Positions 47,075 through 60,637 of a stretch of 64,000 nucleotides of DNA are shown piece by piece. Source of the stretch: an uncultured Fibrobacterota bacterium (GTDB lineage: Bacteria > Fibrobacterota > Chitinivibrionia > Chitinivibrionales > FEN-1185); NCBI GenBank assembly GCA_963753345.1, contig CAVWBU010000018.1, positions 32,001-96,000 of the forward strand. Reading direction: 5' to 3'. A program made the translations under genes and the position numbers. The notes beneath the pieces are model-generated. The model saw only the letters and a list, made by a program, of their open reading frames with translations, did no database searches and had not been told where the DNA came from. How positions within the stretch are numbered: the first letter of the stretch is position 1; each line of letters begins with the position of its first letter.

Positions 47075-48667
47075 TTACCAGCCTATCGCGACCGCAATCC
47101 ACTGGACATTGCCTATGCCCATAAACGACTGATGTCCGCCGTCGTCGTCGTAGGGGAATCCGTAGCAATAATTGTTGATCGACCTGCGGTGGCACCATTT
47201 TGAAAAGTAGTTGCATGGCGCATCCTGGTAATAGGCAGCGGTGTCGTTGGTGCGCCAGTTTGCATATTCAACGCCTTGGGGAAGCGTTGCAACATGTCTG
47301 TTGATGGCGGCGGACCAATCGGGCGAGGCGCCCATTGACGGGTTCGGGCCCGCGCAGGCAAAAATATCCCACGCCGTCGGCACCGTAGGGTACGCGCCGG
47401 GGTCGGCGGCCCAGCCCGGATTTTTCACATAGTGGACGGAGGCCGAATCCTGATACCGGGTGAAGTAATCCACGTACGGGCCGCCCGTGTTGAAATAGTT
47501 GACGGGACATACATGGGGCGCCCATATGTTCGCAAAATCGTGCGTGGCAAGACCGGTAAATTCCTTCGGCACTTCGTTCTTGTATTCATCGAATTTCGAC
47601 TGGCGGGTCTGATAGAACAATTCGTAGTCGTCGCCCATCACCGTATCGATGCCGGTGGAGGTGTGGAGCCGGAAGGCAATGGGAAGCCTCCATCCGTCCA
47701 CGCGGGTGCTGTTGCCGTTCCAACTCCCGCCCCCTGCATTGACTTCCAGGAAATCAAAATATCTGCTGTTGGAGTCGGTGGGGTCGACGTAAAGGTAAAA
47801 TCTTTCGCTGACGATTGGCCTTACCGACTGCTGGGAAAGCTGGACCTTGGCTCCGCCCTGCTCGTGGCTCCAGTAAATCTTGGTGTCCGGGAACGCGCCG
47901 TTGGTCCTGTTCAGGATAATGTACTGAAACGTCTTCGGATAGGTGCTCGTGTCGCCCCAGAAGGCGGTTTTGTCGCCGGTCCAGGTGTTATTCTTTGTCA
48001 AGGTAAAATTGTATTGGCCCGTCAGCGCCGTTATCGGTGTGACGCCGATGGTGTACCCGGGCTCGGTGGCGTGCAGGGTGTCTGTTACCGCGGCGAGTTT
48101 TTCCAGCCGGGTCTCAAATCCGGGAGTGCTCTGGACAACCGTCCCTCCCAAAAGGTGCGACACAGGCTGCAATTTCAAAACCGATGCTGCCCCGTTGATG
48201 GTCACCCGCAGCAGATAGAACTGGGAAGAAATGCCGCGCGTGTCAATTGACATTGAATAGTTGCCTTTGGAAAGACTCTTGTTCAGTACATTGCGCACGC
48301 ACCGGCCGGTCAGGTCGTATATGCTCATCCTCACCAGCGCGTCGCTCTGAGTGAGGCTGAACAGCACTTTCCCGCCAACGTACACGGGCTGAGCAAAGGC
48401 GTCTCCCCGGACAAGCGGGCTTTTCGGGACCACGTTTACGTTGCAGTTCCCGCTCCCAAGCTGGTAATGACCGTTCTTGTCCGTGGTGACTAGATACGGG
48501 GCTTGCCCATACCCGTTGTCAAACGTTGTCTGGCCCAACCTGACAACCGTGTGGGTCAGGGGATTACCGCTTTGGTCCGTAACCAATCCGCAAATGTTTA
48601 CTGTCTGCGAAAAAACAGACCCAACGAAAAATGCCACCATCAGACACGTCACTGCTGCTCTTTTCAT
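47075..48667 (-). CDS. GH64-like beta-1,3-glucanase with N-terminal carboxypeptidase-regulatory/CTD-like module
   Basis: FDFLEVN, NSTRVDGWRLP, APCNYFSKWCH, YGFPYDD; start at ATG 48667 gives a signal peptide. Confidence 0.8.
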   Translation of the reverse strand: MKRAAVTCLMVAFFVGSVFSQTVNICGLVTDQSGNPLTHTVVRLGQTTFDNGYGQAPYLVTTDKNGHYQLGSGNCNVNVVPKSPLVRGDAFAQPVYVGGKVLFSLTQSDALVRMSIYDLTGRCVRNVLNKSLSKGNYSMSIDTRGISSQFYLLRVTINGAASVLKLQPVSHLLGGTVVQSTPGFETRLEKLAAVTDTLHATEPGYTIGVTPITALTGQYNFTLTKNNTWTGDKTAFWGDTSTYPKTFQYIILNRTNGAFPDTKIYWSHEQGGAKVQLSQQSVRPIVSERFYLYVDPTDSNSRYFDFLEVNAGGGSWNGNSTRVDGWRLPIAFRLHTSTGIDTVMGDDYELFYQTRQSKFDEYKNEVPKEFTGLATHDFANIWAPHVCPVNYFNTGGPYVDYFTRYQDSASVHYVKNPGWAADPGAYPTVPTAWDIFACAGPNPSMGASPDWSAAINRHVATLPQGVEYANWRTNDTAAYYQDAPCNYFSKWCHRRSINNYCYGFPYDDDGGHQSFMGIGNVQWIAVAIGW

Positions 48668-48852
48668 TTCACGCTCCCCCTTTTCTGGTGAAAAATAAGA
48701 CATAAGAAAGCGACCAGCCGTTGCCTCACTTTCCCGCATTTTTTGGGAAGGCAGGCTTACCCCCTTTTTCCTGTAATAAAGATACGCCTTGGAAGGTTTT
48801 TTTTCACATTTTTTTCGCGATCCCCTGCCATAGCGGAACTTATTTACCGGAT

Positions 48853-59400: not shown

Positions 59401-60637
59401 ATGCGGCAAGTGTTACCGACACATTGTTCGTCTGGCCAAAATTTGCGTATTCGACAGGGAAGATGGCGTCATCGTCATAACGACTGTTAGCATTATACGT
59501 ACGCTTTGTCGCGCTCATTGCGGCCTGAGTCACCACCGCCGATCCGCGTTTGGTGTACAGCGAAAATTTCCAATTCGGTTGCTGAACATAATCCTCCTGG
59601 CCCGCCGGCGTCTTAGCCTGAAACGCGAATTGGCCGTTCCACGGGCAAAATTTCACCGCGCCCGCACCCGCGCCGCCGAGGGGCGCTCCCGAGGTGCCGT
59701 CCACGGCCTCCGCAATAGTAAAGCTTCCGGTGCTGCTTGCCTTGTCGCCTGCCGAAGAATGGGCGACAACATTCCATGAATGAGAAGAACCGACCGGCGT
59801 TGCGGCAATGGTCGTGACCACGACTTCGCCGAAGGTGACGCTCGCGGCAATGCTGTCCGCCACTTTGTTTCCGTCAACCATTATGGCATAGCCGGTTGCG
59901 CCGGCCAGGGCGTTCCACTCAAAGATTATCGAGCCGCCGGGTGACTTGAAAACACGCGTCCCGTCCGCGGGATAGGTGATATCGAAGGGGGCTTTTTCCA
60001 GGACAAAATTATAGGTACCGGAATACGCGCTTATTGAGCTCAGACCTTCCGCGTACCCAGATGCGGTCGCGATAAGCGTATCCACCACCGCTGCCCGCTT
60101 TGCAGACGCGGATGCCGCAAAATAGCCGTGAACGCAGGTGAGGCCGCCCTGCATGCCTGCATGTTTGTTGACATAGGTAAGCGCGTGCGTGGTGGTGACC
60201 GTGCCGATCCGTGCCTTTACCACATACATTTTTGCCGGAAGATTCGCGTTCACCAGCGGCAGCCGGTATTCACCAGGAGCCAGCGACGTATTGACAAGAT
60301 CGGCAACAAGTCTGCCGGTCAGGTCGTACAGTTGTATCCGGACCGGCTGTGTTTTTGCCACGGCAAACGAAAGAGAAAGTCCATGGACCACCGGCGCGGA
60401 AGCGAATGACGGCGCGGACGGCGAAGGGAGGTTTTGCGTGGAAACAAGGCTGTAGGCACCGTTGGTGTCTGTTGACGTGGTGAGACCGGCCTGGACAAGA
60501 CGCACCGTTGCGCCGGTGATTCCTTTGCCGCTTGCGTCCTTGACCGTTCCTGTAATGGAAATTGCCTGGGCAAAAGCATGGTAAACCAGCCCTGCCGTCA
60601 AAACACACAGGACGCATAACCGACGCTTTTTGTTCAT
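56402..60637 (-). CDS. Large secreted GH116-like glycoside hydrolase with F5/8 type C (CBM32-like) and Ig/FN3-like domains
   Basis: GAPLGGAGAG (GH116 N-terminal motif), NLALGKTANASS..AVDGNATTRWES..QWLSIDLG; N-terminal nested CTD-like module. Confidence 0.65.
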   Translation of the reverse strand: MNKKRRLCVLCVLTAGLVYHAFAQAISITGTVKDASGKGITGATVRLVQAGLTTSTDTNGAYSLVSTQNLPSPSAPSFASAPVVHGLSLSFAVAKTQPVRIQLYDLTGRLVADLVNTSLAPGEYRLPLVNANLPAKMYVVKARIGTVTTTHALTYVNKHAGMQGGLTCVHGYFAASASAKRAAVVDTLIATASGYAEGLSSISAYSGTYNFVLEKAPFDITYPADGTRVFKSPGGSIIFEWNALAGATGYAIMVDGNKVADSIAASVTFGEVVVTTIAATPVGSSHSWNVVAHSSAGDKASSTGSFTIAEAVDGTSGAPLGGAGAGAVKFCPWNGQFAFQAKTPAGQEDYVQQPNWKFSLYTKRGSAVVTQAAMSATKRTYNANSRYDDDAIFPVEYANFGQTNNVSVTLAAFAPYNLADQTKMTWPVAFYRLTLRNMNNSSVDAACAFQISTGSTPTLVSGKGFTAEGGAPSMALFVQSSDPAAIVTVGNDAGFLASGTLNNAPSGTVNMVASKVTLGPGEKKDIEFVLSWYKSDDPAGYYYSNLGTSAQFFAQAGLDNYNDLESRAVQFVERFRSSNVPDWIVNTTLDQTTWTNSSIYTKDGRYSEWEGVYTWFGQMDQGWHSFGSEIWRINGPMFSWPNASEMEFWARTEMVGGDNDGQISHDFAPTAGQVTDHKTCQWDAPGYHGWGGPNWADLDCGFLFGVYESFVATGDKTRMDTYWPYFKRTAQRLYRIATIDNGNTTYPFTFQGTGATYDKGPQDHDLYNSGLALTAFKIIAEMAGIYGDAGMQDSFTTAYTTGIASFKKRYLANPATSMTANQETPFAGLWMSLYFHEDQMFSDADINTTLSYLINGFWHPLDQGMAASGSDGENEGWVPYVMGHLGGAFLNTNHVAEWRAIQRDFYNRYFGNRNRVFDGGIYLVYNGLGDNFASTDWSGHSFYVSMPVVWRNYYSLIGFWYNAYTNALYVEPKLPSTTDKWGASMNHELRNALFCMPGNYGTISYKEDGGTYQNQTITVRFDKPQKVSSIYISDRFLPATTVSVTVNGATTPFSRVGSGTFDHRIKINWTGTVDSAGVLIDAVDQGFNDATPPLAFGLVSPANGSTVQSTMPVLVWNQSSDPESGIQRYDVFVNGNKVASTTDTSYAFTAIVPGSFQWYISAVNWVNLSTSSAKQTFVYSDTVPPSPFSLVAPADNATVSGPAVSFFWQTATDNGTGMDHYEFSLDGVKAADVACDTGNTSYGNLALGKTANASSVLEGNVAANAVDGNATTRWESAWADNQWLSIDLGAPSRIDSVTISWEAAFASSYEIDVANDTLNWTGKAVYQTTTGAGGKESIRGLSAIGRYVRILCTKRATTYGNSIYEFGVYGTPLAVYSAASVPTGTHTWNVSAVDKAGNKTAAKKAFTVIVQ

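Follow-up and report, generated by a model that had tools for sequence, protein, structure and literature searches.

Can a type IX secretion system (T9SS) sorting domain be carried inside an N-terminal module, far from the C-terminus of the protein that it accompanies? The question is raised by a 64,000-nucleotide stretch of contig CAVWBU010000018.1 (assembly GCA_963753345.1, positions 32,001 to 96,000), from an uncultured Fibrobacterota bacterium of the Chitinivibrionales, referred to here as the window. Four genes in positions 47075..60637 of the window (genes 1-4, encoding proteins P0001-P0004) had been described from the letters and open reading frames (ORFs) alone, an account that we call the sequence-only reading. 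It gave each protein a signal peptide and a shared N-terminal module, in which a block resembling a T9SS C-terminal domain (CTD) is followed by a basic-Ala motif and a DTLxxxxxGY segment completing a carboxypeptidase-regulatory-like fold, and it had the passengers end without a CTD. It took the arrangement for an alternative N-proximal export or anchoring signal, possibly processed at the basic motif, a proposal borne out in part. All four ORFs were confirmed at their positions. The analysis supports this architecture, the homology of the block to the organism's own CTDs, the existence of a family, the N-terminal position of the module and its exclusivity with C-terminal CTDs. Judged from sequence comparison and predicted models, the module may serve as an N-proximal T9SS signal or anchor, a tentative reading that falls a little short of probable; T9SS dependence, surface retention and any role of the LAKxAAxxDTL motif, cleavage there included, are what we infer within it.

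The N-termini of the four proteins can be aligned over 211-226 residues, at 26-34 % identity to the first sequence and with 24 invariant columns, including G30, V32, T56-D57, G60, G108, G122-Y124, D186-T187-L188 and G194-Y195 (P0004 numbering). The alignment bears out a signal peptide followed by a shared module in every protein. The module covers about 190 residues after the signal peptide, and its parts are, from first to last, the signal peptide ending in A/S-Q, the first half of a CarboxypepD_reg domain, the CTD-like block, a poorly ordered linker ending in the basic-Ala motif, and a final DTLxxxxxGY...G segment. The passengers proved to be those named in the sequence-only reading. Pfam analysis identified glycoside hydrolase (GH) family GH64 in genes 1 and 2 (PF16483, cut-off 27, reached with 59.8 and 69.1 bits), FISUMP with three fn3 domains in gene 3 (PF09603, 154.2 bits against 33.9; TIGR02145, 103.8 against 41.65), and GH116 with a discoidin domain in gene 4 (PF12215, 48.3 bits against 30.2; PF04685, 36.4 against 26.3), the GH116 assignment being by family match. 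The P0002 model matched the GH64 structure 5h9x in Foldseek with an E-value of 2.3e-23. The longest ORF of gene 1 opens at TTG 48859, 64 codons upstream of ATG 48667, and both the module alignment and the signal peptide begin at M65 (window 48667) rather than at the TTG. Translation of gene 1 most likely starts at ATG 48667 on this sequence evidence, and the stretch upstream of it is probably not translated. Passenger C-termini are kept conserved down to the final residue: the gene 2 protein terminates with a conserved C-terminal strand, and at the GH64 C-terminus A495 and G497 are invariant, with a predicted local distance difference test (pLDDT) score of about 95 for the last strand of the P0002 model.

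The four modules were combined into a profile, with which 1.84 billion cluster representatives were searched, and the best 150 matches were examined. A single near full-length module match, starting at or before residue 37 and spanning 1 to about 240, was found in 108 of them; the other 42 were four fragments of module proteins and 38 multi-repeat CarboxypepD_reg proteins. Across the family alignment of 112 sequences, G30, G60 and G108 are invariant. Within the motif L-A-K-x-A-A-v-v-D-T-L, 94 of the 112 members have the K, 92 have A183 and 111 have D186, so the basic-Ala motif and the DTL that follows it are real and conserved family-wide. Linker 1 has a median length of 13 residues and linker 2 of 32, never falling below 23. 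A Gln occupies the predicted signal-peptidase +1 position (P0004 Q24, window 60566-60568) in 89 of the 112, 1-3 residues ahead of strand 1; this recalls the Bacteroidetes 'Q-rule', in which the Gln after the signal-peptidase site gives an N-terminal pyroglutamate.

Glycoside hydrolases among the family passengers are GH64, GH30, GH3, GH12, GH99/71, GH39 and GH116. Other passengers are FISUMP, LRR, RCC1, NHL, PKD+Lcl_C, FGE-sulfatase-like, BSP peptidase and PETase/PHB-depolymerase-like esterases. The glycoside hydrolases, FISUMP, LRR, RCC1, PKD and esterases among them are typical T9SS cargo types; a GH30 of Fibrobacter succinogenes, for instance, bears a C-terminal TIGR04183 domain (PMC6851124, Table 1). 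A genome scan for related loci returned 11, and because it relied on one narrow pattern (DTL..GY) the taxonomic range is under-sampled. Ten are true related loci, in four Fibrobacterota metagenome-assembled genomes (MAGs), the nearest at 82 % and 75 % identity; the eleventh, from Bacteroidetes, matches the first half of the module only. Three protein names among the GH64-type members cite Chitinivibrionales. The GH64-type homologues are mostly named hypothetical protein, with precomputed Pfam annotation of PF16483 and sometimes PF13620, and PF18962 appears in none of the 80 listed. A homologue search with P0003 residues 1-211 gave 8 matches, with no cultured organism among them. Neither Pfam nor NCBIfam has a model for the module, and the portions of the literature searched yielded no account of a T9SS-type domain that is N-terminal or nested. 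The insert is not flagged by public annotation.

Curated T9SS CTD models gave a divided result for the insert. Por_Secre_tail (PF18962) matches it in three of the four proteins at 13.8-21.3 bits (gathering score 27), and TIGR04183 (NCBIfam, cut-off 23) matches P0003 at 25.8, P0001 at 17.7 and P0004 at 12.8 bits. By these models P0003 exceeds the TIGR04183 cut-off, P0001 and P0004 fall below it, and P0002 has no match. E-values of individual inserts against the libraries are weak, from 0.071 to 8e-6, and judged by library scores alone the CTD likeness of the block would be doubtful. A hidden Markov model (HMM) was built from eight genuine C-terminal CTDs of the window and is thus tuned to this lineage. 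This own-CTD HMM matches the insert in all four proteins, at 29.1, 13.8, 19.3 and 19.8 bits, and in 76 of the 112 family members at i-E<1e-3, always at the insert position. Profile-profile comparison (hhalign) of the inserts of the 112 sequences with the eight CTDs gave Prob 98.6 % and an E-value of 7.8e-16 over 66 columns, which excludes a chance resemblance and, with the own-CTD HMM matches, identifies the inserts as homologues of the organism's own sorting domains. A basic residue is present in the last strand of the insert in 84 of the 112 members (K 43, R 41), P0001-P0004 having K, K, R and A; its counterpart is the near-invariant Lys of type A CTDs (PMC10994853). The insert is not at the extreme C-terminus and ends 330-1250 residues ahead of it in the four proteins.

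AlphaFold2 models were obtained for P0004 residues 1-216 (112-row alignment, pLDDT 84.2) and for full-length P0002 (77-row alignment, pLDDT 83.1). Both show four strands followed by seven; next come a low-confidence linker, which forms a single short strand at the LAK motif, and three further strands. The seven strands of the insert are predicted at residues 83-153 in P0004 (pLDDT mostly >=90) and 83-155 in P0002. The outer domain, a CarboxypepD_reg-like (transthyretin-like) beta-sandwich of seven strands, is thus interrupted, in the models, in the hairpin between its strands 4 and 5 by a complete seven-strand immunoglobulin (Ig)-like domain. In Foldseek the insert matched the RemA CTD in the SprA-PorV complex (8gl6_D, TM 0.57), RemZ (8gl8_D, 0.52) and the RgpB CTD (7pq4, 0.43), with prob 1.00 and E-values of 0.009-0.019; the predicted structure of the insert is CTD-like, contrary to the outcome that the sequence-only reading had named as refuting it. 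The outer domain matched the N-terminal extension (NTE) of SusC (9hfj) at TM 0.82 over 193 columns spanning the insertion, with an E-value above 1e-3, and carboxypeptidase D and N aligned across the insertion over 192-200 columns. In sequence, three proteins match PF13620 over nothing but its opening part (profile positions 1-44 or 2-51 of 82), and P0003 matches PF13715 (CarbopepD_reg_2) at positions 1-39 of 88 only. These CarboxypepD_reg-type matches score 20.8-30.3 bits, below cut-offs of 32.2-32.3, and no contiguous full-profile match was found. The best PDB sequence matches of the first half are SusC NTEs (8aa4_A, E 4.7e-5; 9hfj, E 8.8e-4). With the insert columns deleted, both halves are colinear with canonical CarboxypepD_reg repeats across the junction at Prob 99 %, mostly from the first half; the second half alone gives a weak match (E 0.002, Prob 13.6 %). 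The nesting is argued mainly from the models. The four plus three strands, the 9hfj match across the insertion and the colinear halves agree with the earlier proposal that the DTLxxxxxGY segment completes a carboxypeptidase-regulatory-like fold.

The family was also searched for C-terminal CTDs, with two non-family CTD proteins as positive controls. No CTD-HMM match lies within 15 residues of the C-terminus in any of the 112 family proteins. TIGR04183 matches occur in at least 24 of 88 members, all at residues 80-167, and Pfam Por_Secre_tail matches in 5 of 88, all at residues 89-153. In the window and the 11 related loci, a C-terminal CTD was found in none of 18 module ORFs, and the module in none of 17 C-terminal-CTD ORFs. 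The proteins of genes 1-4 gave no C-terminal CTD match by Pfam, NCBIfam or own-CTD HMM. At least ten other window ORFs end in a C-terminal CTD, including three GH2 proteins and a heparinase-like protein, and three further ORFs have weak CTD-like tails. The passengers thus end without a CTD, as the sequence-only reading had stated, and the co-occurrence with a C-terminal CTD that it had named as evidence to the contrary was seen neither in the family nor in the window and loci.

If the module is an N-proximal T9SS signal or anchor, passengers exported by way of signal peptidase I (SPI) and folded in the periplasm would be carried by it over the outer membrane, and the passenger's own C-terminus would be left untouched. 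Conservation of the passenger C-termini to the last residue fits such a free C-terminus rationale. The module enzymes are SPI-type, non-lipoprotein and polymer-active, and no other outer-membrane signal is recognisable in them. T9SS cargo folds in the periplasm, and the translocon reads the CTD through a plastic pocket, by shape and not by conserved residues (PMC10994853). For several CTDs, secretion is not prevented by a His-tag added at the C-terminus, and Porphyromonas gingivalis PorU, PorZ and PorA retain their CTDs once secreted, the CTD keeping the protein at the surface complex (PMC11285876). Fibrobacter BTD/Fpm-1 tails have been equated with T9SS CTDs (PMC6851124). Shape-based reading, tolerated C-terminal extensions and retained CTDs together make it plausible that the translocon could still read a CTD homologue that is folded and carried by two long linkers. 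Canonical PorU cleavage, which takes place N-terminal to the CTD, would not set the passenger free here, so the nested domain would probably be retained, and it may tether the enzyme to the surface through PorV-like shuttles or other partners in the outer membrane. Bolder, possible and to be held with reserve, is the proposal that a T9SS sorting domain works in any position, and that a Fibrobacterota enzyme family is exported by a nested N-proximal CTD that, not being removable by the usual cleavage, doubles as a permanent surface tether. In a bolder sub-variant, a PorU-type sortase would cut linker 1 and lipid-anchor strands 1-4; the passenger would then be held through the split beta-sandwich, or freed by a second cut at the LAK motif.

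Several observations weigh against a sorting role. The 64-kb window contains no T9SS components, and a Pfam scan of 68 neighbouring ORFs revealed no dedicated shuttle gene beside the module genes; type B CTDs, which have such a neighbour, were the model for that search (PMC12618676). The curated cut-offs are mostly missed: among the window proteins none of four reaches the Pfam value and one of four that of TIGR04183, and P0002 gives no match in either scan; in the family, 1 of 88 reaches the 27 bits of Pfam and, among the matches listed, 3 of 88 the 23 bits of TIGR04183. P0004 has Ala where the last-strand basic residue is expected. A Foldseek search of the module against the PDB returned nothing at E<=1e-3, and other Ig-like folds (DUF3244, CopC) score level with the CTDs. 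Among the representatives, many may be metagenome ORFs cut short, in which case C-terminal CTDs would seem to be lacking more often than they are. The apparent restriction to T9SS-bearing phyla is drawn from the 10 loci in four Fibrobacterota MAGs and the three Chitinivibrionales names. Finally, the T9SS signals described in the cited portions of the literature are all C-terminal.

The alternative that survives best, a serious possibility if a somewhat doubtful one, is loss of the sorting role: the insert would be an Ig-like domain derived from a CTD but no longer used for sorting, and the module would be structural or serve protein-protein or surface attachment, with the protein exported by another route or staying in the periplasm. 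CTD scores that lie mostly below the cut-offs fit this explanation, as does the occurrence of Ig-like relatives of the CTD fold (FlgD_ig, DUF3244) outside sorting signals. The LAKxAAxxDTL motif, the fixed nesting site and the fixed N-terminal position are absent from the C-terminal CTDs of the window and indicate that the module as a whole has a specialised function, and the outer domain is similar to the SusC NTE, which is periplasmic and has no known function (PMC7782687). Loss of the sorting role would, however, leave the strict exclusivity with C-terminal CTDs unexplained, and would leave large non-lipoprotein polymer-active enzymes (GH64, GH116 with discoidin) without a recognisable outer-membrane export signal while their cluster partners bear CTDs.

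It is unlikely that the module is a carbohydrate-binding module (CBM) or other substrate-targeting module for beta-glucan-active enzymes. Many passengers are beta-1,3/1,6-glucan-active (GH64, GH30 endo-1,6-glucanase-like, GH3 exo-1,3/1,6-glucosidase-like), and beta-sandwich folds of the module's size are common among CBMs. The same module nevertheless precedes FISUMP, LRR, RCC1, NHL, FGE-sulfatase-like, BSP peptidase and esterase passengers, and on this diversity a CBM role was rejected as the main explanation. Pfam scans of the window proteins and family members matched no CBM family, and the homology to sorting domains and the exclusivity would go unexplained. A chance or compositional likeness of unrelated beta-sandwiches, with nesting as an alignment artefact, draws on the weak library E-values (0.071 to 8e-6) and on Foldseek E-values that are all >1e-3, but is effectively refuted by the profile-profile E-value of 7.8e-16, the matching of 76 of 112 members at the same place by an HMM of only eight local CTDs, the same topology in two independent models and the same layout in 108 independent cluster representatives.

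Table 1 Module genes, module parts and DUF4423/CarboxypepD_reg gene pairs (positions are those of the window unless a related locus, L002 or L009, is named; res, residues).
Feature	Position	Strand	Evidence or remark
Gene 1: module + GH64 beta-1,3-glucanase	47075..48667	-	Pfam, family alignment; likely start ATG 48667
Gene 1 CTD-like insert, module res 96-171	48155..48382	-	Pfam, TIGR04183, own-CTD HMM
Gene 1 motif LEKLAAVTDTL + outer-domain strands 5-7	47990..48106	-	Module alignment
Gene 2: module + GH64, 498 aa	49038..50534	+	Pfam, model fold
Gene 2 CTD-like insert, res 84-159	49287..49514	+	Own-CTD HMM 13.8 bits; 7 strands in model
Gene 2 motif LEKLAAVVDTL + outer-domain strands 5-7	49563..49679	+	Model
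Gene 3: module + 3 fn3 + FISUMP, 671 aa	50556..52571	+	Pfam, NCBIfam
Gene 3 CTD-like insert, res 79-155	50790..51020	+	TIGR04183 25.8 bits, own-CTD HMM
Gene 3 motif region (..MAKRLDAGAAIDTL) + outer-domain strands 5-7	51072..51188	+	Module alignment
Gene 4: module + GH116-like + Ig-like + discoidin (F5/8 type C), 1411 aa	56402..60637	-	Pfam
Gene 4 signal peptide, res 1-23, predicted cleavage between AFA and Q	60569..60637	-	Judged by eye; model helix 6-18
Gene 4 outer domain strands 1-4, res 24-67	60437..60568	-	CarboxypepD_reg profile 1-44/82, model
Gene 4 CTD-like 7-strand insert, res 83-158	60164..60391	-	Pfam, TIGR04183, own-CTD HMM, model, Foldseek
Gene 4 linker-2 motif SAKRAAVVDTL (family consensus LAKxAAvvDTL)	60074..60106	-	Family alignment
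Gene 4 outer domain strands 5-7, res 186-216	59990..60082	-	Model, Foldseek, profile alignment
DUF4423/CarboxypepD_reg pair	62565-63437 + 61063-62568	-	
DUF4423/CarboxypepD_reg pair	22800-23696 + 23539-25335	+	
DUF4423/CarboxypepD_reg pair	L002 766-2999		
DUF4423/CarboxypepD_reg pair	L009 3227-5304		

Module genes are often neighbours of C-terminal-CTD genes that seem to belong to the same pathway. At related locus L008 and, more weakly, at L004, tandem GH64 module genes are preceded by thaumatin-like proteins that have C-terminal CTD tails; thaumatin or GH64-like proteins with weak to clear C-terminal CTD tails are encoded at window 39651-40823 and 40836-41987 (+), L004 3221-4270 and L008 1622-2626. 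The clustering is suggestive of a locus for attack on beta-1,3-glucan in which both tag positions are in use. A DUF4423 gene (Fibrobacter paralogous family) is repeatedly paired with a CarboxypepD_reg-domain protein gene, their ends overlapping or abutting. The pair adjoins module or CAZyme genes and could be regulatory; in the window and in L002 it is found upstream of the GH116 module gene. In a related MAG, the two GH116 module genes are flanked by two copies of a DDE transposase (L001 2288-3805, L002 10837-12354) of equal length and identical Pfam scores, which interrupt a DUF6057 gene (fragments L001 3895-4410, L002 9397-10686).

Three tandem GH2 paralogues with C-terminal CTDs lie at window 30076-32883, 33543-36290 and 36509-39316 (all -). 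The middle one (33543-36290) stops inside its CTD, covering positions 3-63 of 78 of the local HMM and ending ...GVYVVRCVS, so its sorting domain is without the last strands. A 132-codon ORF at window 42081-42479 (+), just upstream of two paralogous CTD proteins (42528-43487, 43514-44446), encodes a CTD in its last ~65 residues (18.3 bits, local HMM) with no recognisable passenger and may be what is left of a gene. The best CTD of the window belongs to the protein of 53951-55381 (-), with Por_Secre_tail at 40.1 bits and matches to FlgD_ig and CHU_C as well; its N-terminus, in contrast to the nested form, resembles an ordinary uninterrupted CarboxypepD_reg start. Window 52001-56000 has the lowest guanine and cytosine content, 0.485 against 0.51-0.60 elsewhere. 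Within it, the 267-codon ORF 52674-53477 has no signal peptide and matched only LEF-8 at E 0.025, far below the cut-off; it may not be a gene.

Both the definition and the prediction of T9SS cargo go by the C-terminal domain, and neither genome surveys nor secretome predictions count any but the C-terminal form. If the nested domain is functional, Fibrobacterota T9SS secretomes are under-counted, the translocon can recognise a CTD without needing a free C-terminus, which would give a handle on how SprA/PorV read the signal, and the module offers a design for displaying proteins that need a free C-terminus. Should it have no such function, it clearly exemplifies how domain insertion can co-opt the domain of a secretion signal. 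In both cases the module merits its own family model.

The best PDB match of the outer domain, by sequence and by structure, is the SusC/RagA NTE, a CarboxypepD_reg-like barrel of seven strands that is likewise the first domain after the signal peptide. The NTE is contiguous and periplasmic and is followed by a TonB box and barrel, whereas the module's domain is split and followed by enzymes. The nearest ESM Atlas clusters by language-model features (0.94) are CarboxypepD_reg + FlgD_ig/Por_Secre_tail proteins of ~200 aa from Krumholzibacteriota/Fidelibacterota, which combine the same two domain families at a similar total length. They differ in that their Pfam lists suggest a chain that ends in a C-terminal CTD, with an ordinary domain ahead of it and no passenger behind. 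A precedent for a FlgD_ig-type domain inserted in a small beta domain is the flagellar hook-cap protein FlgD, in which an Ig/Fn3-like domain is inserted in a Tudor-like domain, FlgD_ig being a Pfam relative of Por_Secre_tail; FlgD is flagellar, has another host domain and has no link to secretion signals. The insert itself is most readily compared with the T9SS type A CTD (TIGR04183/PF18962; Fibrobacter BTD/Fpm-1). It is alike in size and in its seven-strand Ig-like sandwich, and it has the same motifs (v.I.lyDl.Gr.v, G.Y, Y.vrv and, in 84 of the 112 members, the last-strand basic residue). It differs in lying at residues ~83-158, embedded in another domain with the chain continuing at both ends and a conserved motif after it, and PorU cleavage would not release the passenger of such a nested insert. 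The retained CTDs of PorU, PorZ and PorA differ from it in being still C-terminal and carried by T9SS components rather than by an enzyme family; by analogy with them, retention would be the likely fate of the nested CTD too.

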